Shown: one piece after another, positions 7,504 to 42,246 of the stretch
Numbering within the stretch: the first letter of the stretch is position 1
How the letters are laid out: the number at the start of each line of letters is the position of its first letter
Source of the DNA: Candidatus Kuenenia stuttgartensis
GTDB lineage: Bacteria > Pseudomonadota > Alphaproteobacteria > SMXS01
Reading direction: 5' to 3'
Length of the DNA: 64,000 nt
Assembly (NCBI GenBank): GCA_943329845.2
Contig: CALQFM020000014.1
Span: 1,509-65,508, forward strand
Position numbers and translations under genes: made by a program
The notes under the pieces: model-generated
What the model was told of the DNA's origin: nothing
The model's input: only the letters and a program-made list of their open reading frames with translations
Database searches by the model: none

Positions 7504-7719
7504 CTGCTTCCCCTGTGCCGTTTCCCCGGCACTATAATGCATGGCGGCGCCGGGCCTGCAATCGGCATCGCCCGCCGGGCCGCGCCGCGATTTAGGGCGC
7601 GGGCAGGGTTGAGCAGCCTTGCAGGCGAGGCGCCAACGGCACTAAGTTGCACGCCACAAATCCGGCGGCGGACTCAGCGCGTACAGCGCCTGTCCGTTCC
7701 GAACCTCCAGGGGAGAGCC

Positions 7720-8871
7720 ATGACCACAGCCCTCACATATCCACCCCGCACGCTCGGGCCGGAGCAGGAAGCCATGCGCGCCGAAGTGCGCGCGTTCCTG
7801 CAGAAGGATTATGCCGCCGGCGGCTTCGGTCGCGGCCAGGAGGCCATGGCCCGCTACGACGTGGACTTCTCGCGCCGCTGGGGACAGGCCGGCTTCATCG
7901 GCATCACCTGGCCGAAGCAGTATGGCGGCCGCGGCTTGACGTTCCTCGACCGCTACGTGGTCACCGAGGAGGCGCTGGCCGCCGGCGCGCCCGTCGGCGC
8001 CCATTGGGTCGCCGACCGCCAGAGCGGCCCGCTGCTGCTGAAATACGGCACCGAGGAGCAGCGCCAGCGCTTCCTGCCCAAGATCATCGCCGGTGAGGCG
8101 TTCTTCTGCATCGGCATGTCGGAGCCGGACAGCGGCTCGGACCTGGCCTCGGTGCGGATGAGCGCCACCCGGGTCGACGGCGGCTGGAAGCTCAACGGCA
8201 CCAAGCTGTGGACCTCGCTGGCCCATATCTGCCACTACATGATCGCCCTGGTGCGCACTTCGCCGGTCAACCCGGAGAACCGCCACGAGGGCATGAGCCA
8301 GATGATCGTCGACTTGAAGGCCCCCGGCGTCGAGGTCCGCCCGGTCTACAACCTGGCCGGCGAGCATCACTTCAACCAGGAAGTCTTCACCGACTATTTC
8401 GTCCCGGACGAGAACGTGGTGGGCGAGATCGGCGCCGGCTGGGAACAGGTGATGAGCGAGTTGGCCTATGAGCGCAGCGGTCCCGAGCGCATCCTGTCGA
8501 CCTTCCAGACGCTGGTCGAGCTGGTCCGCCAGGTCGGCGACGATCCGTCCGAAGTCGAGGCCCGCGCCATCGGCCGCCTGACCGCGCACCTGATGACCCT
8601 GCGCGGCATGTCGGTGTCGGTCGCCGGCATGCTGGCCGACGGCAAGATGCCGGTCACCGAAGCGGCGCTGGTCAAGGACGTCGGCACCAATTACTGCAAG
8701 GAAGTGCCCGAGGTGGCGCGCCTGATCTGCCCGCCCGAGGACGGCGCCGGCAATTCCAAATATGAGAAGATGCTGAAGACGGCGACCCTGATCGCGCCGT
8801 CGCTCACCATCCAGGGCGGCACGCGCGAGATATTGCGCGGCATGATCGCAAGGGGGCTCGGTCTACGATGA
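7720..8871 (+). CDS. Acyl-CoA dehydrogenase, alpha-type subunit
   Basis: FCIGMSEPDSGSDLAS, LNGTKLWTS and LAYERSG motifs. ATG 7720 follows GGGAGAG. Confidence 0.92.
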   Translation: MTTALTYPPRTLGPEQEAMRAEVRAFLQKDYAAGGFGRGQEAMARYDVDFSRRWGQAGFIGITWPKQYGGRGLTFLDRYVVTEEALAAGAPVGAHWVADRQSGPLLLKYGTEEQRQRFLPKIIAGEAFFCIGMSEPDSGSDLASVRMSATRVDGGWKLNGTKLWTSLAHICHYMIALVRTSPVNPENRHEGMSQMIVDLKAPGVEVRPVYNLAGEHHFNQEVFTDYFVPDENVVGEIGAGWEQVMSELAYERSGPERILSTFQTLVELVRQVGDDPSEVEARAIGRLTAHLMTLRGMSVSVAGMLADGKMPVTEAALVKDVGTNYCKEVPEVARLICPPEDGAGNSKYEKMLKTATLIAPSLTIQGGTREILRGMIARGLGLR

Positions 8872-24247: not shown

Positions 24248-25123
24248 ATGCTGCGACAGATACGCTTCCTGCCATCAGAGAACATCCACGGGCGTCTGCT
24301 GCCGTGGGTGATCGCCGTCATGGTGTTCCTCGCCGGGCTCGCCATGCTCATTGCGCTCGGCCTGCAGATGACCGCGCGTACCTGGCATCAGGGACTGGCG
24401 CAGAGCCTGACCGTGCAGGTGATCAACGCCGACAAGGCGGCGCGCGACCGGGAAGTGGCCGCGGCGCTGGCCGAGCTGCACAAAACCCCGGGTATCGCCG
24501 CGGCGGCCGAGGAGACCAGCGATCAGGTCGTCGCCCTGCTGGAGCCTTGGCTGGGCAAGGGGAATGTGGGACCCGACCTGCCGATCCCGGCGCTGATCGA
24601 CGTGAAGCTGGCCGATGGCCCGCCGGTCGACGTGACCGCACTGGGCGCGGCGCTTGCCAAGGTCGCGCCCAGCGCCCGGGTCGACGCGCATGAACGCTGG
24701 CTCGCCGACCTGCTGGTGCTGATGCGCATTGTGCAATGGATCGGCGGCGTGATCGTCGGCCTCGTCGGGCTGGCCACGGTTGCCATCATCATCTTTGCCA
24801 CCCGAGCCGGGCTGGCGACGCACCGCGAGACGGTCGAGATCGTCCACATGATGGGCGCGAAGGACAGTACCATCGCCGGCGCGTTCCAGTGGCGTTTCCT
24901 TTGGGTGGGCGTCAAGGGCGCCATCATCGGCCTGGCTGCGCTCGCCGCCGGCATAGGGGTCGTGCACGTCATCAACCAGCGGCTGGAGGGCGCATTGCTG
25001 CCCCAGCTCCTGCCGCCGCCCGAGGTGCTGGCCAGCCTGCTCGTCCTGCCCGTGGTCGCCGGCCTCCTCACCATGTTGACAGCCCGGTTCGCGGTGATGC
25101 GCGCGCTGGCCGACATGAACTGA
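24248..25123 (+). CDS. ftsX: Cell division permease FtsX
   Basis: TM1, periplasmic loop and three C-terminal TMs; MGAKDSTIA motif; follows ftsE. Confidence 0.88.
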   Translation: MLRQIRFLPSENIHGRLLPWVIAVMVFLAGLAMLIALGLQMTARTWHQGLAQSLTVQVINADKAARDREVAAALAELHKTPGIAAAAEETSDQVVALLEPWLGKGNVGPDLPIPALIDVKLADGPPVDVTALGAALAKVAPSARVDAHERWLADLLVLMRIVQWIGGVIVGLVGLATVAIIIFATRAGLATHRETVEIVHMMGAKDSTIAGAFQWRFLWVGVKGAIIGLAALAAGIGVVHVINQRLEGALLPQLLPPPEVLASLLVLPVVAGLLTMLTARFAVMRALADMN

Positions 25124-31620: not shown

Positions 31621-32313
31621 ATGATCCGTCTCGACGACATTCACCTAACACTTAATAGCCGCGCCGGACCCGTCAACATCCTGCGTGGAATCGACCTGGG
31701 CATCGCCCGCGGCGAGGCGGCCGGCATGGTTGGTCCGTCGGGATCGGGCAAGTCGACGCTGATGAGCGTGATGGCCGGTCTGGAAAAGCCCAGCAGCGGC
31801 CGCGTCGCCATCGACGGCCAGGACATCACCGGCATGGACGAGGACGCGCTGGCGCGCTTCCGCCGCGGCCGCATCGGCATCGTCTTCCAGTCGTTCCACC
31901 TGATCCCGACCATGACGGCGCTGGAGAACGTGGCGGTGCCGCTCGAGCTGATGGGCGACAGGCACGCCTTCGACCGCGCCGCCGAGGAGCTGAAGGTCGT
32001 CGGCCTGGGCGCGCGCACCGAGCACTATCCCGGCCAGCTGTCCGGCGGCGAGCAGCAGCGGGTGGCGCTGGCACGGGCGCTCGCGCCCCAGCCGGGCCTG
32101 CTGCTGGCGGACGAGCCGACCGGCAATCTGGACGCCGGCACCGGCGCCGCGATCATCGAGCTGATGTTCGCGCTGCAGGCCGAGCGCGGCACCACCCTGG
32201 TGCTGATCACCCACGACGCGGGGCTGGCCGCACGCTGCGACCGGCAGATCAGGCTGCGCGATGGCCGTATCGACGCGGAGCCGCATATCGTGCGCGCCGG
32301 AGCCGCGTCCTGA
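31621..32313 (+). CDS. ABC transporter ATP-binding protein (YbbA-like)
   Basis: GPSGSGKS, LSGGEQQR and DEPTGN; divergent from tesA. Confidence 0.92.
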   Translation: MIRLDDIHLTLNSRAGPVNILRGIDLGIARGEAAGMVGPSGSGKSTLMSVMAGLEKPSSGRVAIDGQDITGMDEDALARFRRGRIGIVFQSFHLIPTMTALENVAVPLELMGDRHAFDRAAEELKVVGLGARTEHYPGQLSGGEQQRVALARALAPQPGLLLADEPTGNLDAGTGAAIIELMFALQAERGTTLVLITHDAGLAARCDRQIRLRDGRIDAEPHIVRAGAAS

Positions 32314-34823
32314 TGCCGCTCGCCCTGCGCCTCGCGCTGCGCGAATTGCGGGGCGGCCTGCGGGGCTTCGGCATCTTCCTGCTGTGCATCGTGCTGGGCG
32401 TGGCGGCCATCGCCGCGGTCGGCGGCGTGCGCGGCGCGGTGCTCGAAGGCATCGGCGAACATGGCCGTCCGCTGCTCGGCGGCGACATCGAGCTGCGCAT
32501 GACCAGCGAGCCGATGCCGAAGGACGCGCTCGATTACATTTCCGGACGCTATCCGGTCAGCCGTACGGCGACGCTGCGCTCCATGGCCGCCGCCGATCTG
32601 GACCGGCGCTCGACCATCGAGCTCAAGGCGGTCGACGGCGCCTATCCGCTCTATGGCGCGGCCGTGCTGTCGCCGGCCATGGCGCTGGCCGACGCGCTCG
32701 CGTTCCGCGACGGGCATTGGGGCGTCACCGTCGAGCAGGCGGTGCTCGACAAGACCCAGACGAAGATCGGGGATCTGCTGCGGATCGGCGCGATCGACTA
32801 CCGCATCCGCGCCGTCACCGTCACCGAGCCCGACAAGGCGGGCGACGGATTCACCCTGGGCGCCCGCGCCCTTGTCGCGGACGCCAGCCTGAAGGACTCG
32901 GGGCTGATCCAGCAGGGCAGCATCGTCCGCTACCAGTACCGCCTGAGACTCCCGCCGGGCGCCGACCTGGAAGCGGCCAAGCAGGACCTGAACGACCGCT
33001 TCCCCGACGCCGGCTGGCGCATGCGCGACCGGTCGAACGGCGCCGACAGCATCAAGCGGTTCCTCGAGCGTCTGGGCGTGTTCCTGTCGCTGTCCGGCCT
33101 GACCGCGCTGCTGGTCGGCGGTGTCGGCGTCGCCAACGCCACCGCCGGCTACCTCGCCACCAAGCGCGAGGCGGTGGCCACGCTCAAGAGCCTGGGCGCT
33201 GGCGGCGGCCTGGTGTTCCGGATCTATCTCTGGCAGGTGATGCTGCTGGCACTGGTCGGCGTCGCCGTCGGCCTGGTTCTCGGCGCGGCGATCCCGTTCG
33301 TGGCCATCGCCTACCTGCAGGACATGCTGCCCGTACCCGCGCGGCCCGGCATCTACCCGCAGCCGCTGCTGCTGGCCGCCGCGTACGGCCTGCTGACCGT
33401 GCTGGCGTTCGCTTCCTGGCCGCTCGGCAAGGCGCGCGACGTGCCCGCCGCCGGCCTGTTCCGGCAGATCGTCGCGCCGGTGTCGGGCCGGCCGCGCTGG
33501 CGCTATGTCGCGCTGACCGGCGGCGCGCTCGCGGCGCTGGCCGCGCTGGCGGTGCTGTTCTCCGACGAACGGCGGTTCACCGGCTGGTTCCTGCTGGGCT
33601 CGGCGGTCGCCTTCCTGGTGCTGTGGCTCGCGGGGCTGGGCCTGATGCGGGTCGCCGCGCACCTGCCGCGTCCGTCCAGCACCGCCTGGCGCATGGCGCT
33701 GGCCAATCTGCACCGGCCGGGCGCCGCGACGCCCAACGTGGTGCTGTCGCTGGGGCTGGGCCTGACCCTGCTGGTCACCGTTGCCCAGATCACCGCCAAC
33801 CTGTCGGCGCAGATCAAGGACGGCGTTCCCGCCGACGCGCCGTCCTACTATTTCATCGACATCCAGCCGGACCAGATCGACGGCTTCGAGACCCTGGTGC
33901 GCGGCCTTCCCGGCGTAGCGGCGGTCGACCGGGCGCCCATGCTGCGCGCCTCGATCACCGAGGTGAACGGCGTCCGCGCCGAGGACGTCAAGGTCGCGGA
34001 CGACGCCAAGTGGGCGCTGCAGGGCGACAGGGGTCTGACCTATGCCGCCGAACTGCCGGAGAACAACACCATCGTTGCCGGCAAATGGTGGCCGGCAGGC
34101 TATGCCGGTCCACCCCTGATCTCGTTCGACGCCAAATTGGCCCAGGGCATGAACCTGACCGTGGGCGACACCCTCGGCTTCAACATCATGGGCCGGCCGA
34201 TCACCGCCACCATCGCCAATCTGCGCGAGATCGACTGGTCGGGCATGGGCATGAATTTCTCGGTGATCTTCGCGCCGGGCACGCTCGAGCATGCGCCGCA
34301 CGCCCACCTCGCCACCGTCCGGGTCGACCAGGCCCACGAGTCGGGTGTCGACAGGGCCGTCGCGCGCGACTATCCCAACGTCACCTCGGTGCGGGTCCGC
34401 GACATCCTCGCGACCGTCAACGTGCTGCTGAAGCAGATCAACCAGGCGGTCTCGGCCGCCGCGTCGGCGGCGCTGATCGCCGGTGTCGTCGTGCTGGCGG
34501 GCGCCATGGCCGCCGGCTACAGCGAACGGGTGCGCGACGCGGTCATCCTCAAGGTGCTGGGCGCGCGCCGCGCCGACATCGCCCGCGTCTACCTGATCGA
34601 ATACGCGCTGATGGGCCTGATCACCGCGCTGATAGCCATGGCGCTCGGCACCCTGGCCGCATGGCTGGTGATCACCCGAATCATGGAGGCCCAGTGGAGC
34701 CTGCACCCCGAAATCCTCGTGGCGACGGCCGCCGCGGGGCTGGTGGTGACGGTGGCGTTCGGCTTCCTGGGCACCTGGCGCGCCCTCGGAGAGCGGCCGG
34801 CGCCGCACCTGCGCGTAGATTAA
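32313..34823 (+). CDS. ABC transporter permease (YbbP-like, double FtsX domain)
   Basis: RLALRELRGG, LLGGD and two permease halves; coupled to the ATPase gene. Confidence 0.9.
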   Translation: MPLALRLALRELRGGLRGFGIFLLCIVLGVAAIAAVGGVRGAVLEGIGEHGRPLLGGDIELRMTSEPMPKDALDYISGRYPVSRTATLRSMAAADLDRRSTIELKAVDGAYPLYGAAVLSPAMALADALAFRDGHWGVTVEQAVLDKTQTKIGDLLRIGAIDYRIRAVTVTEPDKAGDGFTLGARALVADASLKDSGLIQQGSIVRYQYRLRLPPGADLEAAKQDLNDRFPDAGWRMRDRSNGADSIKRFLERLGVFLSLSGLTALLVGGVGVANATAGYLATKREAVATLKSLGAGGGLVFRIYLWQVMLLALVGVAVGLVLGAAIPFVAIAYLQDMLPVPARPGIYPQPLLLAAAYGLLTVLAFASWPLGKARDVPAAGLFRQIVAPVSGRPRWRYVALTGGALAALAALAVLFSDERRFTGWFLLGSAVAFLVLWLAGLGLMRVAAHLPRPSSTAWRMALANLHRPGAATPNVVLSLGLGLTLLVTVAQITANLSAQIKDGVPADAPSYYFIDIQPDQIDGFETLVRGLPGVAAVDRAPMLRASITEVNGVRAEDVKVADDAKWALQGDRGLTYAAELPENNTIVAGKWWPAGYAGPPLISFDAKLAQGMNLTVGDTLGFNIMGRPITATIANLREIDWSGMGMNFSVIFAPGTLEHAPHAHLATVRVDQAHESGVDRAVARDYPNVTSVRVRDILATVNVLLKQINQAVSAAASAALIAGVVVLAGAMAAGYSERVRDAVILKVLGARRADIARVYLIEYALMGLITALIAMALGTLAAWLVITRIMEAQWSLHPEILVATAAAGLVVTVAFGFLGTWRALGERPAPHLRVD

Positions 34824-34937: not shown

Positions 34938-35678
34938 ATGGCACAAGACTACAGAGCGCCTTACAGCGTGGGCACGGGGACTGCCGCGGAGATTGATCGC
35001 GGCCTCCGCGCACACATGCTGCATGTCTACAACTACATGGCATCGGGCGTGCTGCTTACCGGCATCGTCGCCCTGCTGGTATCCAACATGGCCGTCACCG
35101 ACGCCGGCCAGCTCACCAGTTTCGGCCAGGCGATCTACCTGTCGCCGCTGAAGTGGGCGGTGATCCTCTCGCCGCTCGCGCTGGTGATGGTGATGAGCTT
35201 CGGCCTGAACAAGCTCAGCCTCTTCGCCCTCCAGGCGACGTTCTGGGTCTATGCCGGCCTGATGGGTCTCTCGCTCAGCAGCATCTTCCTGATGTACACG
35301 GGTGAGAGCATCGCCAAGGTGTTCTTCATCTCGGCGGGCATGTTCGGCGGCCTCAGCCTGTTCGGCTACACGACCAAGAAGGATCTGGGTCCGGTCGGCA
35401 AGTTCATGTTCATGGGCCTGATCGGCATCCTGATCGCCAGCGTCGTGAACATCTTCATGGCCTCGTCCATGATGTCGTTCGTGATCTCGGTGATCGGCGT
35501 CGTCGTGTTCGCCGGCCTGACCGCCTATGACACCCAGAAGATCAAGGAACTCTACTACGCGGGCTATGGCGAGGAGCAGACCGCCAAGCTCTCGCTGATG
35601 GGCGCCTTGAGCCTGTACCTGGACTTCATCAACCTGTTCATGATGCTGCTGCGCCTGTTCGGCAACTCGCGCAACTAG
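34938..35678 (+). CDS. Bax inhibitor-1 / YccA family protein
   Basis: GYTTKKDL, TAYDTQKIK and ALSLYLDFINLF motifs. Confidence 0.93.
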   Translation: MAQDYRAPYSVGTGTAAEIDRGLRAHMLHVYNYMASGVLLTGIVALLVSNMAVTDAGQLTSFGQAIYLSPLKWAVILSPLALVMVMSFGLNKLSLFALQATFWVYAGLMGLSLSSIFLMYTGESIAKVFFISAGMFGGLSLFGYTTKKDLGPVGKFMFMGLIGILIASVVNIFMASSMMSFVISVIGVVVFAGLTAYDTQKIKELYYAGYGEEQTAKLSLMGALSLYLDFINLFMMLLRLFGNSRN

Positions 35679-35701
35679 GACGCAGGTCCATCGATACACG
35701 G

Positions 35702-35733
35702 AACGCCCGGCCCAGCGCCGGGCGTTTTCGTTT
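35702..35733 (+). terminator. Rho-independent terminator
   Basis: AACGCCCGGC-CCAGC-GCCGGGCGTT followed by TTCGTTT, between convergent genes. Confidence 0.75.
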
Positions 35734-35753
35734 GATCGGAACGAGGAGCCGCG

Positions 35754-36095
35754 TCAGTCGACGACGTTGAGCCGCTTGCGCTCGAAGAAGCGCAGCACCG
35801 TTTCCAGGTCCTGGCCGCGCTTCAGGATCTGGTTGCCTGGCGCTAGGATAGCGAAGGCGCCCTGGCGCTTGGCCCATTTGGGGCATTTGACGATGCGGTA
35901 GAGCGGCATCTCGCTGGCCCGGCGGAACACCGAGAACACGGCGCGCTCGGCGCCGTCGGCCATGGCGTAATCCCGCCATTCGCCATCGGCGACCATTTGC
36001 CCGTAAACCCGCAGGATCTGATCGAGCTCGCGCCGGTTGAAGAAGATGCTAGGCGGTGTCGCGCGGTATTCCGCGAGGCTGGTCACGTTTTGCAT
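35754..36095 (-). CDS. DUF2794 family protein
   Basis: FNRRELDQILRVYGQMVADGEWRDYA motif. Confidence 0.85.
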   Translation of the reverse strand: MQNVTSLAEYRATPPSIFFNRRELDQILRVYGQMVADGEWRDYAMADGAERAVFSVFRRASEMPLYRIVKCPKWAKRQGAFAILAPGNQILKRGQDLETVLRFFERKRLNVVD

Positions 36096-36207
36096 AGTCC
36101 AATTAAACCGTCACGTTCACAGGAATGTAAACATCAAATCTGCCGTCCGGCCGCCTCTGAAAAGCGACCAAATGACCTCGCGTTCGCCGGAACCGGAACC
36201 CAATCGC

Positions 36208-36309
36208 GCCACAATCCGCGGCGACTATCCGATTGTTGGCCTCGTCGCCCGGTCGTGTTAGTCGGATCTGTAGCCCCCAAGCCCATTCCGACTGAGACGG
36301 CCGGGCATT
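36208..36309 (+). repeat. Double-hairpin structured element, copy 1 (possible ncRNA or recombination site)
   Basis: Hairpin 36208-36240 with a bulged T, then a 20-bp stem (36247-36266/36287-36306) with loop TCTGTAGCCCCCAAGCCCAT. Shares two identical 26-bp blocks with copy 2. Confidence 0.85.
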
Positions 36310-36412
36310 CTTATGCCCGCGGCAGCCATCAACCCCAGAGTTCCACGGATCGTCCTGATCGCCGGAAGGCAGTTCCCTGTATGAAGCTGCGCCTGAATCG
36401 CGCACAGATTAA

Positions 36413-36447
36413 TAATAATTATTAGTATTTATGAGAGTAATTATTAC
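36413..36447. promoter_or_regulatory. AT-rich operator region with two TAATTATTA cores (Fur-family-box-like)
   Basis: Palindromes TAATAATTATTA (36413-36424) and GTAATTATTAC (36437-36447), cores 22 bp apart, in a very AT-rich leader. Confidence 0.45.
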
Positions 36448-36602
36448 AACAATAATCGATAGAGTATTGTGAGAAATATTTCGGTAACCTTCCAATAAAT
36501 ACTGGCGATCATGCATTTTTATTCGTTGAATCAGCCAATCAACCTCACTAATTTCTGACAGGCCAAAAATTGTTCCTACGGTCAATAAGAGGGCGGAGAA
36601 CC

Positions 36603-37961
36603 ATGGGTGTCAGGCGGGGTATTTGCTACGCGGCAGCGGTGCTGCCTGTAGCGGCAGTGGTCTACATTATCGCTGCCGGCGGTCCGGTACGGGCATTGCC
36701 AAGTTTTTCGCGGCAGACCGGCGAAGATTGCGCCGCCTGCCATGTGGGTAGTTTCGGCCCGCAGCTGACGCCGCATGGTCGGCGATTCAAGCTGGGCGGG
36801 TATACGGATGGCGACGGCAAGTTTCACGTGCCGCTCAGCGCCATGGCGGTCGGATCCTGGACCCATACGGCCGAAGACCAGGCCGGCGGGGCCGGACCGC
36901 ATGCCGGTCCCAACAACAATGCGGCGGTGGACGAGGTATCGGCTTTCCTCGCCGGCAAGATCGCCGGTCCCGTCGGTGCCTTCGTCCAGGTGACCTATGA
37001 CGGCAACGAGCACCATGTCGCCCTCGACAACGCGGATATCCGTGCGGCCTTCACCACGGAATGGGCCGGCAAGGATCTGATCCTGGGCCTGGATTTCAAC
37101 AACAATCCCACCGTGCAGGATGTGTTCAACACGACCCCGAGCTGGGGCTTTCCGTACACCTCTTCGGCGCTGGCACCCAGCGGCATGGCAGGCACCCTCA
37201 TCAATGGCGGCGCCGAGATGCAGGTGGGCGGCGCATCGGTGTATGGCTACTGGGATAACCTGATCTACGCCGAGGCGGGCGTTTACAGCAGGCTGTCGTC
37301 GGGCTTCCTGCACGATGTGGGTATCGGCCGTGAGACCGTGGTCAAGGGAACCGCGCCATACTGGCGGCTGGCGCTGACCCACGAATGGAACCGGCAGGCC
37401 GCGTCGATCGGCACGTTCGGCATGATCGCCAACGTCTATCCCGACGATCTGCATCTGTCCGGATCGGACAAATATACCGACATGGGCTTTGACGCGACCT
37501 ACCAGTGGCTGGGCACGCGCAAGGACATCATCTCGGCCAACGTCAGCTACGTGCACGAGAAGCAGAACCGGACAGGGTCCTTCGCGCTGGGCCTGGCATC
37601 CAACCCGAAGGACAGCCTGAACGAGTTCAAGGCGAACGTGTCGTGGTACCACGACAAGACCTATGGTCTGACCGCGGGCGTATTCGGCACCACGGGTTCG
37701 GCTGATCCCCTGCTCTATCCGGTCGAGGACATCGGCGGCAGTCGTCTCGGCGTGCCCGACACGCGCGGATACGTGCTCCAGGCTGACTGGACGCCGTTCG
37801 GCAAGGAAGATTCATTCCTCTCGCCCTGGGCCAACCTGCGCCTTGGCATCCAATACACCGGCTACACCAAGTTCAACGGTGCCAGCCAGAACTATGACGG
37901 TGCCGGCCGGAAGGCCTCGGACAACAACTCCGTGTTCCTGTTCAGCTGGATCGCATTCTAA
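36603..37961 (+). CDS. cyc2: Cyc2-like outer-membrane porin-cytochrome c fusion
   Basis: Signal peptide ending VRA, then LPSFSRQTGEDCAACH...PQLTPHGRRFKLGGY, which matches the Cyc2 heme-domain signature. Amphipathic beta-strand-like C-terminus ending in F. Confidence 0.8.
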   Translation: MGVRRGICYAAAVLPVAAVVYIIAAGGPVRALPSFSRQTGEDCAACHVGSFGPQLTPHGRRFKLGGYTDGDGKFHVPLSAMAVGSWTHTAEDQAGGAGPHAGPNNNAAVDEVSAFLAGKIAGPVGAFVQVTYDGNEHHVALDNADIRAAFTTEWAGKDLILGLDFNNNPTVQDVFNTTPSWGFPYTSSALAPSGMAGTLINGGAEMQVGGASVYGYWDNLIYAEAGVYSRLSSGFLHDVGIGRETVVKGTAPYWRLALTHEWNRQAASIGTFGMIANVYPDDLHLSGSDKYTDMGFDATYQWLGTRKDIISANVSYVHEKQNRTGSFALGLASNPKDSLNEFKANVSWYHDKTYGLTAGVFGTTGSADPLLYPVEDIGGSRLGVPDTRGYVLQADWTPFGKEDSFLSPWANLRLGIQYTGYTKFNGASQNYDGAGRKASDNNSVFLFSWIAF

Positions 37962-37974
37962 CTCTGGAGGTTCC

Positions 37975-38352
37975 ATGCCTGTTTCCCGCCTTGCCGCCGC
38001 CGCCATTGCCATCCTGCTTCTCGGCCCGGTGGCCGCGCGCGCCCAGAACGTGGACGATGGCGCGGATTCCTTCGACGCGAACTGTGCCGACTGCCACTCG
38101 GTCAGCAAGCAGTTGAAGAACAAGAAGGGGCCCTCGCTGTTCGGTATCGTCGGCAGGCACGCGGGAACCGTGGCCGGCCAGGAATACTCGCCCGCCAACA
38201 AGGGCTCCAATCTGGTGTGGACGCCCGACGTCCTGACCCGCTATCTCGCCAGTCCGCAGGCCCTTGTTCCCGGAACGACGATGAAGTTCAAGGGGTTGAA
38301 GGATCCGAAGGAGATCGCGGACCTGGTGGCGTTTCTGGAGCAGCAGAAGTGA
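37975..38352 (+). CDS. Periplasmic monoheme cytochrome c (c2-like)
   Basis: Signal peptide, CADCH, GPSLFGIVGR and axial Met in PGTTM. Confidence 0.92.
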   Translation: MPVSRLAAAAIAILLLGPVAARAQNVDDGADSFDANCADCHSVSKQLKNKKGPSLFGIVGRHAGTVAGQEYSPANKGSNLVWTPDVLTRYLASPQALVPGTTMKFKGLKDPKEIADLVAFLEQQK

Positions 38353-38957
38353 ACATCGATCGTCATCATCGGCTGGTGCGAAGCCTGCACTGGGTTACCT
38401 TCCTGGCGCTGATATTCGGCTATTCGCTGATCTGGTGGCGCGACGGCCTGGACGATACGGGCGATCGGAGCCGGGTGCTGGCATGGCACGCGACCGTCGG
38501 CCTTACAGTGCTGGCGTTGGCGATCGCCCGGCTGCTGAGCCGCGCCTTCGGCGACCGGCTGGTGGTGCCACACCCTCTGTCGCGCATGGAGCGTCTCGGC
38601 TCGACGGCGTCGCATGTGCTTCTCTACGTGGCGATGATCGGGATTCCCCTGCTCGGCTGGCTGACCGTCAGCGCGCGTGGCCGCCTGCCGGACCTGTTCG
38701 GGCTGGTGGCATTGCCAGGTCTGATCGCAAAGGATCGTGACCTGGCCGATTCACTTCAGCAATGGCACTATCTCGCGGCCATGGCGATGCTTGCCGTCGT
38801 CGGCGTGCATGTCTGCGGCGCGCTGTATCATCACTTCATCAAGCGCGACAATGTGCTGCGGGCCATGCTGCCGTCCTCGGTCGACCGGATGCTGGGCAAA
38901 TTGCCGCGTGGTCGCCCAGAGCACGTCCAAATCCGGCCACAATTGCCGGTAGAATAA
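38349..38957 (+). CDS. Cytochrome b561 family diheme membrane protein
   Basis: GTGA overlap with the cyt c gene; four TMs with LHW, WHATVG, QWHY and VHV...HHFIKRD histidines. Confidence 0.88.
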   Translation: MNIDRHHRLVRSLHWVTFLALIFGYSLIWWRDGLDDTGDRSRVLAWHATVGLTVLALAIARLLSRAFGDRLVVPHPLSRMERLGSTASHVLLYVAMIGIPLLGWLTVSARGRLPDLFGLVALPGLIAKDRDLADSLQQWHYLAAMAMLAVVGVHVCGALYHHFIKRDNVLRAMLPSSVDRMLGKLPRGRPEHVQIRPQLPVE

Positions 38958-39038
38958 CGATTGTTGGCCTCGTCGCCCGGTCGCGCTGAGATGGATCTGT
39001 AGCCCCCAAGCCCATTCCATCTCATGCGACCGGGCATT
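38935..39038 (+). repeat. Double-hairpin structured element, copy 2
   Basis: Same architecture as copy 1, 2728 bp downstream. 20-bp stem (38975-38995/39016-39035) with an identical 20-nt loop and compensatory stem changes. Confidence 0.85.
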
Positions 39039-39099
39039 TCATTTCCGGGCCGCGCCATTCCCCTGACAGCATCGCCCTGACACCATCGACAGATCGCGT

Positions 39100-39128
39100 C
39101 TTGATGTGGCGCAGGCAGTTTCCTATGT
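39100..39128 (+). promoter_or_regulatory. RpoH (sigma32)-type promoter of htpG
   Basis: CTTGAT-N16-CCTATGT fits the alphaproteobacterial heat-shock consensus CTTGAA-N15/16-CCTATAT. Confidence 0.65.
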
Positions 39129-39156
39129 AGCCGTTCGCCAGAACGAGGAGACGCCG

Positions 39157-41027
<1,871 letters not shown>

Positions 41028-41031
<4 letters not shown>

Positions 41032-42179
41032 CCTGCCGTCTTGCGTGCCGCTGCCGCCAGCACTACGTATCCCACCACCGCCGACGCCAGCGACCCGATG
41101 ATGATGCCCAGCCGGGCCAGCTCCAGGTGCTCGGGCGCGGTGAAGGCCAGGCCGCCGATGAACAGGCTCATGGTGAAGCCGATGCCGCACAGCACGCTGG
41201 CGCCGTAGAGCACGGCCGGGGTGCCGCCGGTGGGCATGGCGGCCCAGCCCAGCCGGATCGCCAGCAGGCTGGCCGCGAAGATGCCGAGCTGCTTGCCGAC
41301 GAACAGGCCGAGCGCGATGCCCAGCGGCACCGGCAGCAGCAGGTCGGCGGGCGGCAGGTCGAGGATGTAGACCCCCGCGTTGGCGAAGGCGAACACCGGC
41401 AGGATCAGATAGGTCACCCAGGGATGCAGCGCATGCTCCAGCCGGCGCAGCGGACTGGTGCCGTCGCGGTCCCGGACCGGGATGGCGAAGGCCAGCGCCA
41501 CGCCGGCCAGTGTCGCGTGCACGCCGGACTTCAGCACCAGCAGCCATAGCACCACGCCGAGCACCAGGTAGGGGAGCAGGTTCGTCACCTTCAGCCGGTT
41601 GAGCAGGAACAGCACGGCAAGTACACCGAGCGCGCCCAGCAGTATCAGCGGCGCCAGATCGTCGGTATAGAACACGGCGATGATGACGATGGCGCCCAGG
41701 TCGTCGACGATGGCGAGCGTGGTGACGAACATTTTAACGGCGAGCGGGATGCGGCTGCCCAGCAGTGCCATGACGCCCAGCGTGAACGCGATGTCGGTGG
41801 CGGTCGGGATCGCCCAGCCGCGCAGCGCCGCCGCGTCGCCCCAGTTCACGGCGGCGTAGATCAGGCCGGGCACCGCCATGCCGCCGATGGCGGCGATGCC
41901 GGGCAGCATCACCTGACGCATGTCGGCCAGCGCGCCCTCGGCCCGCTCGCGCTTCAGCTCCAGCCCGATCAGCAGGAAGAACACCGCCATCAGCCCGTCA
42001 TTGATCCAGTGGATCACCGACTCGTCGAGCCATGGCCCGATGCCGACATGGCTTTCCAGCACAGCATTGTAGCCGCCCGCCAGCGGCGAGTTGGCGACCA
42101 CCATGGCCAGCACGGCCGCCGCCACCAGCAGCATGCCGGCGGTGGCCTCTAGGCGGAAAAATTTGAGCAGGAAGTCCAG
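41028..42179 (-). CDS. nhaA: Na+/H+ antiporter NhaA (start uncertain; CTG at 42179 or upstream TTG)
   Basis: WINDGLMAVFF, PTATDIAF, AIVDD and LCGIGFTMSLFI motifs. Confidence 0.94.
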
Positions 42180-42204
42180 TTGGGTCTCTCCGTCGCGGGC
42201 AATT

Positions 42205-42235
42205 CCTAACCCTCTCCCAGAGGGAAAGGGAGGGG
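42205..42235. repeat. Degenerate CCCTCTCCC...GGGAGAGGG-type intergenic palindrome
   Basis: CCTAACCCTCTCCCAGAGGGAAAGGGAGGGG resembles a common alphaproteobacterial REP-like family (from recall). Confidence 0.4.
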
Positions 42236-42246
42236 AAGCCAAAACG

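Follow-up and report, generated by a model that had tools for sequence, protein, structure and literature searches.

Tandem copies of a conserved hairpin element upstream of htpG, candidate small-RNA genes on either side of a Cyc2-like cytochrome cassette

We analysed a 64,000-nucleotide (nt) stretch of an alphaproteobacterial assembly filed under Candidatus Kuenenia stuttgartensis (GCA_943329845.2, contig CALQFM020000014.1, positions 1,509 to 65,508 of the forward strand; hereafter the window), in which an element built around a long hairpin occurs in two direct copies, c1 and c2, that bracket a three-gene cytochrome cassette upstream of htpG. Our conclusion is that each copy is probably the gene for a new structured small RNA (sRNA) of ~85-90 nt, which has its own terminator hairpin and is transcribed from the + strand towards htpG. 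The RNA would start at or just before an invariant single-stranded tail, GUUGGCCUCGUC, with a CCUC anti-Shine-Dalgarno-like core, continue into one long G+C-rich hairpin, whose stem drifts in sequence while it stays paired and whose ~20-nt apical loop holds an invariant UAGCCCCCAAGCCCAU core, and end in a U-rich tract, the hairpin doubling as an intrinsic terminator. It may act in trans as a riboregulator through the 5' tail and/or the C-rich loop, either by pairing with G-rich sites such as ribosome-binding regions or by holding a protein partner. An earlier reading of the letters alone (the sequence-only reading) had offered a new small or structured RNA and a folded recombination site as options; the former is favoured by covariation in 33 copies, strand-biased wobbles, a T-rich tail, invariant motifs, the lack of an Rfam match and a low, syntenic copy number. 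The element would thus represent an sRNA family not previously described, in a lineage of freshwater, soil and estuary Alphaproteobacteria represented by metagenome-assembled genomes (MAGs) only, and its clear anatomy, three paralogues and conserved link to htpG recommend it for inclusion in Rfam and for target prediction.

A hairpin with conserved pairing and a strand

The two copies share two exact 26-nt blocks, block A (CGATTGTTGGCCTCGTCGCCCGGTCG, at 36230-36255 and 38958-38983) and block B (GGATCTGTAGCCCCCAAGCCCATTCC, at 36264-36289 and 38993-39018), with spacings of 2728 and 2729 nt, respectively, because of a 1-nt indel. Neither block occurs again in the 64-kb window at up to 3 mismatches (chance expectation, 0). 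Within the copies, hairpin 2 has a stem of ~20 bp, with 19 pairs and one G.G mismatch in c1 and 20 pairs and one bulged C in c2, around a 20-nt loop (TCTGTAGCCCCCAAGCCCAT) that is identical between them. Four pairs differ on both sides between c1 and c2 (C-G>T-A, T-A>A-T, T.G>G-C, and T-A>C-G), and the three wobbles are all G.U on the + strand. When compared with shuffles, the folding of the two copies gave z = -4.1 and -3.9. Exact matching, direct reading and folding thus confirmed what the sequence-only reading had said of the shared blocks, the compensatory changes around an invariant loop and the orientation of the wobbles.

The stem was then followed across the family, using an alignment of 21 copies with their flanks (A2) and two alignments of the bodies alone (A3 and A4). 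In 33 distinct copies, 97.5% of the stem cells are paired and 12 of the 21 pairs change on both sides; the observed covariation values were reached by none of 500 shuffles, and sliding the stem partners against each other lowered pairing to 29-46%. A 19-copy set gave the same picture. The stem consists of an outer helix of 10 bp, all of which are 100% paired, and an inner helix of 7 bp, and its sequence varies among c1, c2, a third paralogue at another locus (c3) and distant single copies, with pairing kept throughout. On these comparative grounds, we regard selection on the structure of hairpin 2 as demonstrated.

The sequence-only reading had taken structure to be selected more generally, and had described a hairpin 1 with a bulged T and a diverged loop, which was indeed found in both copies (Table 1). 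Across 21 family members, hairpin 1 is 88.7% paired, a value reached by 58 of 500 shuffles; its inner pairs are invariant, each of the two outer pairs is disrupted in 9 of the 21 copies, and RNAalifold retains just 4 invariant pairs. Further, its 5' arm (36208-36215) falls within the conserved region upstream of c1 and uses a conserved box there. As a conserved helix, hairpin 1 is thus indistinguishable from shuffles, a result that neither supports nor refutes it, and the claim of selection stands for hairpin 2 only.

The element has a strand. Wobble cells in the alignment comprise 35 G.U on the + strand versus 6 A.C/C.A, and the 10 nt after the stem contain on average 5.2 T residues (range 3-8, 32 copies) in a genome of 66% GC; distant members have clean T tracts (e.g. 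GGGCAAUUUCUUUUU), and no T tract follows the stem on the opposite strand. The bias of the wobbles and the T tract on one strand only indicate an RNA that is read towards htpG and ends at its own hairpin. As in an intrinsic terminator, the stem is G+C-rich and a U-rich tract comes straight after it on the transcribed strand; because its loop is longer than 8 nt, the hairpin escapes a simple terminator scanner.

The unpaired parts are conserved in sequence. Both the 5' tail and the loop core are invariant in every clade copy at all three loci, the apical region GGAUCUGUAGCCCCCAAGCCCAUUCC is invariant in the aligned copies, and the loop reads UCUGUAGCCCCCAAGCCCAU in all copies of the clade. The tail and loop motifs are nearly intact in the distant relative L030 (HtpG 69% identical); the most distant copies, in L032 and L028, have substitutions in the loop and, in L028, also in the tail. 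In relative L036, the copy cut by an insertion sequence (IS) has mutating motifs (GTTGG>GCAGG, GGATCTG>GAACCTG). As to known families, Rfam 15 gave no match at the gathering threshold over the whole window; with permissive filters on 35700-39400, the best models over the copies were MIR1886 (20.8 bits against a cut-off of 62) and BjrC174 (17 against 45), and the best E-value for the copies was 1.2. The family went unrecognised in the sequence-only reading, and this search agrees.

Paralogues at different loci also have ~100 nt of upstream DNA in common, which comprises GAAAAGCGA..., a box (CCAATCCCGCCACAAT) and a -10-like hexamer (GACTAT, TATTAT, or TAGAAT) 6-8 nt before GTTGG. A hexamer with A2 and T6 at this spacing is found in the clade copies, L030, and L032; in L028, the spacing deviates. 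The alignment contains no covariation-supported RNA structure in this region, the box has no other occurrence in the window, and inspection by eye found no consistent RpoH, EcfG, sigma-54, or ECF41 pattern. The region upstream of c1 is probably promoter or regulatory DNA, judging from its conservation. Because c1 and the ancestral copy (see below) lie between divergent genes, the proposed RNA needs a promoter of its own. A small open reading frame over the 5' part of c1 (ATG at 36172) was considered and rejected: the ATG is missing in L008, L005, and L015, a 1-nt indel (GTC-A-G) in the c2 and c3 copies breaks the frame, and the 12-nt motif has no third-position variation.

Distribution and history of the copies

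Relatives were gathered via DUF2794 homologues and their contigs, one exact-pattern scan of a genome collection and one scan of a metagenome collection. The element is rare: 7 MAGs contain 11 true stretches, and another 8 come from metagenomes. None of the 7 MAGs has more than 3 copies of the exact core, and the positions are conserved, so the element is not the high-copy dispersed repeat for which the sequence-only reading had allowed; model R1 found no further matches in ~280 kb of loci. The c1 and c2 copies lie between DUF2794 and htpG. The c3 copy lies after the stop codon of a Rieske ring-hydroxylating oxygenase gene, facing the 3' end of a convergent DEAD-box/DbpA helicase gene, and in the six loci in which we located it (L009, L011, L012, L016, L017, and L019) it is always ~95 nt past the Rieske stop and ~27 nt from the helicase stop; its ~100-nt upstream region (GAAAAGCGA...) is common to c1.

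Five relatives (L007, L008, L013, L015, and L024) have no cytochrome genes between DUF2794 and htpG and contain both complete copies, 159-174 nt apart. These empty sites are clean: the c1 terminator is followed by 25-45 nt and then by the c2 upstream region. The boundaries of the cassette indel lie ~25 nt past the c1 stem and ~85-90 nt before the GTTGG of c2, outside both hairpins. In more distant relatives (L030, L032, and L028; HtpG 63-71% identical), one copy is present at the c2 position, upstream of the htpG promoter, with model scores of 80, 49, and 36 bits; in Zavarzinia and Stappiaceae, the DUF2794 genes are no longer syntenic with htpG, and their loci give no model match. The HtpG proteins of carriers are 63-95% identical to that of the window. 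The sequence-only reading had asked whether relatives without the cassette have one copy; five close ones keep two, and, apart from the hybrid of L010 (see below), a single copy is seen in the more distant ones.

Comparison of these loci shows the following succession. The ancestral state is a single copy between DUF2794 and the RpoH-type htpG promoter. The clade duplicated this gene in tandem (c1 and c2) and to a second locus (c3), the duplicated unit including the ~100 nt of conserved upstream DNA, and the cassette came later into the ~70-nt spacer between c1 and c2, to be remodelled or lost by lineage. This order (single gene, tandem and dispersed duplication, cassette insertion) follows from the distant single copies together with the empty loci that have both copies, and the bracketing is explained by the cassette lying in the gap between a pair of tandem paralogues that are older than it. 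The sole copy in L010 is a hybrid (Table 1), which recombination between identical stretches of 23-26 nt, site-specific recombination or an assembly collapse would each produce.

Some smaller observations belong here. Just past c1, window positions 36314-36343 (GCCCGCGGCAGCCATCAACCCCAGAGTTC) weakly resemble the box upstream of c2 in the cassette-free L013, with a score that 3 of 300 shuffles reach, and may be a trace of the insertion. Elsewhere in the window, positions 24755-24803 on the + strand (GTCGGCCTCGTCGGGCTGGCC) resemble the 5' tail and the start of the stem, and give a weak model match (13.5 bits, E 0.86) that is most likely due to chance. The labels of some contigs (Rhizobium sp. Q54 for L010, L012, and L015 and uncultured Bifidobacterium for L016) look wrong for high-GC freshwater alphaproteobacterial DNA, and L016 is probably mis-binned; the same synteny and RNA also occur in MAGs labelled Sphingomonadales or Alphaproteobacteria.

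Weighing the explanations

Sequence of the c3 type is present in 14 runs, from several studies, that are labelled RNA or are probably RNA, 9 of which are plain metatranscriptomes (from lakes, sludge, wetland, soil, estuary, biofilm, and a plant sample); a few other runs contain c1 or c2. In run X17, the c3 contig spans the region from the end of the Rieske gene to ~12 nt beyond the c3 stem, at a depth of 11 versus 3-5 for the neighbouring gene and none at the end of the helicase gene, and two other contigs end at most 2 nt from GTTGG. Contig ends also arise where conserved sequence meets species-specific flanks, and we therefore count these data as presence in RNA samples only.

Several observations weigh against an independent sRNA. 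The RNA evidence consists of unstranded assembled contigs of depth 2-11 with no read-level ends and possibly some carry-over of DNA, and several of these contigs reach upstream of GTTGG or past the terminator. A search for a sigma-70 consensus promoter in the upstream DNA found none, and the conserved box matches no factor that could be assigned. A loop of 20 nt is unusual for an intrinsic terminator, and, if hairpin 1 is real, the RNA would start ~30 nt earlier than we propose. Finally, a duplex-energy scan of the 64-kb window gave no convincing target, finding only antisense matches of the element to itself and ordinary matches to G+C-rich coding sequence, so we infer the trans-acting mechanism rather than observe it. 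A match (ACGAGG) at the htpG ribosome-binding site was considered as a target and rejected, as it is not conserved in relatives.

Much of the same anatomy would suit a cis-acting leader, attenuator or insulating terminator that controls read-through, into htpG for c2 and into the cassette for c1, or ends upstream transcription, namely that of the cytochrome b561 operon at c2 and of the Rieske gene at c3. The hairpin is terminator-like, the cassette is immediately upstream of c2 and the Rieske gene immediately upstream of c3, c1 is upstream of the cassette in the genomes that have one, and the X17 contig, which covers the end of the Rieske gene and c3, breaks off past the stem. We nonetheless consider this account unlikely, because the interval between c2 and the htpG start codon holds a conserved RpoH-type promoter for htpG itself, c3 has no gene downstream on the same strand (the helicase gene being convergent), only c2 follows c1 in cassette-free genomes, and no gene precedes the ancestral single copy on its strand. 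Further, the invariant 12-nt tail, the 16-nt invariant part of the loop and the ~100 nt of conserved upstream DNA would be superfluous for a plain terminator. The resemblance to Rho-independent terminators and to sRNAs from the 3' ends of genes goes as far as the G+C-rich stem, the U-rich tract and the position of c2 and c3 at operon 3' ends; here, both the ~20-bp stem and the invariant 20-nt loop are much larger than those of ordinary terminators, the 5' tail and upstream DNA are conserved, and no gene ends at the ancestral copy. If the RNA is real, it could instead bind or sequester a protein through its C-rich apical loop and not pair with mRNAs. An absolutely invariant 16-nt loop on a long stem is typical of hairpins recognised by proteins, the target scan found none, and the C-rich-loop RNAs of the cuckoo/CcsR family work with a small RNA-binding protein, CcaF1 (PMC8034643). 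Against this, none of the three loci has a candidate gene for such a partner linked to it and the CCUC of the 5' tail resembles a classical seed, and we rate protein binding as an improbable alternative to pairing.

The other option of the sequence-only reading, a folded recombination site by analogy to attC, or more broadly a DNA-level site for insertion and excision of the cassette, we regard as very improbable. The likeness to attC is real in that the direct repeats on either side of a gene cassette form imperfect hairpins, with bulges or mismatches, whose stem sequence is free and whose fold is kept. The cargo between the copies varies, the cassette is patchily present on the HtpG tree, the L010 hybrid is joined inside the invariant loop, and an IS is inserted in the c2 loop of L036. 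However, the five empty loci keep both copies intact and the indel boundaries lie outside the hairpins, so the attC-like reading fails: the point of recombination would lie outside the element, and there is no array. Distant relatives have the single copy in the same place with no cassette, and c3 has no cargo. The genes called in the ~12 kb around the window locus include neither an integrase nor a transposase, and those up to 10 kb either side in relatives include no integrase. No RYYYAAC...GTTRRRY pair of core sites is present: only GTTGGCC occurs on the 5' side (with C as the third R), and the 3' side reads CCGGGCATTT with no RYYYAAC partner. The G.U asymmetry and T tract indicate RNA, and the L010 hybrid is equally expected from homologous recombination or assembly collapse between the identical stretches. 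Direct repeats with compensatory stems that flank a cassette are thus not necessarily recombination sites, and comparison with empty loci decides the matter. No more credible is a palindromic repeat of the REP/RIME/MITE type that is selfish or neutral and lacks a function of its own. The element is palindromic, intergenic and present in several copies, but there are ~3 copies per genome at orthologous positions in genomes whose HtpG proteins are 63-95% identical, its unpaired motifs are invariant, terminal inverted repeats and target duplications are absent, and decay begins only in the IS-truncated copy of L036. We also entertain, as a doubtful addition, that the pair of RNA genes, through its long hairpins and invariant loops, makes the DUF2794-htpG spacer a preferred landing or rearrangement site and/or that the RNAs control the Cyc2-type module post-transcriptionally; the loop-joined hybrid in L010, the IS in the loop in L036 and the repeated gain, loss or swap of the module point to a rearrangement site. 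Were the RNAs to control the module, extracellular electron uptake would be coupled to the heat-shock regulon.

An sRNA gene thus remains our preferred explanation, and among known sRNAs the closest in behaviour, by analogy, is the cuckoo/CcsR family (alpha-r14; RSs0680 and SmelC397). This family is described as clustered homologous hairpins in which a C-rich loop motif is the sole conserved sequence, with compensated stems and RpoH-dependent, heat-induced expression (PMC4615179; PMC8034643). Its hairpin units are clustered and found at several loci, as c1 and c2 are in tandem with c3 elsewhere, and a conserved C-rich loop motif is combined with stems that have many compensatory changes, here 12 double-changed pairs. 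An anti-Shine-Dalgarno-like part, a link to RpoH and heat or stress, and a terminator-like 3' hairpin are further likenesses (PMC4615179; PMC8034643). The defining motif in each hairpin loop of the family is CCUCCUCCC (PMC4615179), whereas the loop motif here is UAGCCCCCAAGCCCAU; a cuckoo/CcsR unit has 2-4 hairpins, whereas a single helix is supported by covariation here. The present element also has an invariant 5' tail, no upstream DUF1127 gene and apparently its own promoter region for each unit. Because the CCUCCUCCC motif and the architecture of 2-4 hairpins are absent, we do not consider it a member of that family.

AbcR1 and AbcR2 of Rhizobiales are tandem sRNA paralogues in one intergenic region, with their own terminators and single-stranded C-rich seeds. 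The arrangement of tandem paralogous sRNA genes in one intergenic region is alike; the structure is different, there is no similarity in sequence or by model, and the lineage here is uncultured.

The cytochrome cassette and the htpG locus

The first gene of the cassette encodes a 452-amino-acid (aa) protein with the motif series ALPSFSRQT-GED-CAACH-VGSFG-PQL. Cyc2 proteins are recognised by the signature AXPXFAR[Q/K][T/Y]...CXXCH...PXL (PMC8406198), and the protein fits this description: it is longer than the 365-aa minimum and has a single CXXCH, the upstream and PXL motifs, and a modelled 16-strand porin, with FSR where the family consensus ALPSFARQT has FAR. In the AlphaFold model, the haem segment is followed by 16 beta-strands, with a predicted template modelling score of 0.74. 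The 4710 homologues of the protein, from Novosphingobium, Nitrospirillum, Methylovorus, Azoarcus, and others, are mostly named 'cytochrome C'. Together with the soluble cytochrome c and the cytochrome b561, or with the cupredoxin in L035, the protein looks like part of a Cyc2-like module that would serve extracellular electron uptake or iron oxidation. The third gene, for cytochrome b561, encodes 202 aa in the window versus 174 aa in L003/L004, L036, and one further relative contig; its usual stop (ATGCTCTGA) is lost, and the frame therefore runs for ~28 extra codons (38874-38957) into the upstream region of c2, ending 5 nt before the GTTGG.

The sequence-only reading had linked the element to variable cargo, and as an observation this is real: what lies between the copies is the full set of three genes, a decayed form of it, a variant with a cupredoxin gene or nothing. 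The three-gene cassette is present at the DUF2794-htpG site in the window, L003/L004, L026, and L027. In L005, only the gene for the 452-aa protein is left, and a 3' remnant of the b561 gene (...ALYHHFIKRDGVLRAML*) lies in the 474-nt gap before htpG (7690-8165), a state that reads as an internal deletion of the cassette. In L035 (6639-9110), c1 and c2 flank a Cyc2-like gene and a cupredoxin gene (PF00127), followed by a 3' remnant of the b561 gene, and the electron carriers were therefore swapped in place. In L036 (5663-9700), the three-gene module is at another locus between fragments of IS3-type transposase genes (rve upstream and HTH_Tnp_1 downstream); its right flank is the c2 upstream region with the 5' half of c2, cut in the loop after GTAGCCC, and c1 is missing. 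The closest relatives of the window, L010, L015, and L013 (HtpG 95, 93, and 92% identical), lack the cassette, and the more distant L004, L027, and L005 (89, 87, and 82%) have it, relationships that are taken from HtpG and DUF2794 identity and for which the neighbour-joining tree is weakly supported. In L004, L027, and L005, the 452-aa protein is 86, 83, and 78% identical, that is, it diverges in step with HtpG, which implies that the module is old at this site. Its patchy presence reflects either several losses or the exchange of filled and empty alleles by homologous recombination via the conserved flanks. In this clade, the Cyc2-like module, a marker of iron oxidation, is thus a variable islet whose position in the chromosome is fixed.

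Coordinates of the features are given in Table 1. The htpG promoter has the form CTTGAT-N16, which we take to be RpoH-type from general knowledge of the consensus, and the motif is conserved in L007, L010, L026, L028, L030, and L032; in the distant L007, L028, L030, and L032, it reads CTTGAT-N16-CCTATNTAG.

Table 1. Features of the htpG locus in the window, with two copies from relatives
Feature	Position	Strand	Remarks
FtsX-type ABC permease gene	32313-34823	+	
Bax1-I gene	34938-35678	+	
DUF2794 gene	35754-36095	-	PF10984; divergent from c1
c1 upstream region	36159-36234	+	Conserved among c1, c2, and c3 paralogues and orthologues (alignment A2)
c1 upstream box	36200-36215	+	CCAATCGCGCCACAAT
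c1 -10-like hexamer	36223-36228	+	GACTAT, 6 nt before GTTGG
Hairpin 1, both copies	36208-36240; 38936-38968	+	GCCACAAT/ATTGTTGGC with bulged T; loop diverged
c1, candidate sRNA	36235-36322	+	Full match to covariance model R1, 100.4 bits, E 1e-21
c1 5' tail	36235-36246	+	GUUGGCCUCGUC
c1 stem arms	36247-36266; 36287-36306	+	
c1 loop	36267-36286	+	Invariant
c1 T-rich tail	from 36307	+	
AT-rich leader before cassette	36400-36580	+	32% GC vs 66% GC in the window
Cassette gene 1, Cyc2-like fused monohaem cytochrome-porin	36603-37961	+	452 aa; no Pfam/NCBIfam match
Cassette gene 2, class I cytochrome c	37975-38352	+	125 aa; PF00034; weak CycA-like NCBIfam match below cut-off
Cassette gene 3, cytochrome b561	38349-38957	+	202 aa; PF01292
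c2 upstream region	38888-38962	+	Alignment A2
c2 upstream box	38928-38943	+	CAAATCCGGCCACAAT
c2 -10-like hexamer	38950-38955	+	TAGAAT
c2, candidate sRNA	38963-39051	+	htpG-proximal; model R1, 102.1 bits
c2 5' tail	38963-38974	+	
c2 stem arms	38975-38995; 39016-39035	+	
c2 loop	38996-39015	+	
c2 tail		+	CATTTCATTTCC
htpG promoter, presumably RpoH-type	39100-39130	+	CTTGAT-N16-CCTATGTAG; downstream of c2 terminator
htpG	39157-41031	+	PF00183; syntenic with RNA locus
NhaA gene	41028-42242	-	
Aconitase gene	from 42297	-	
c3 example, in L019	2469-2557	-	
Hybrid copy, in L010	3693-3780	-	c1 5' arm and c2 3' arm joined in the invariant loop; sole copy between DUF2794 and htpG

AT-rich leaders such as the one in the window also precede the Cyc2-like gene in L003, L027, L005, L035, and L036.

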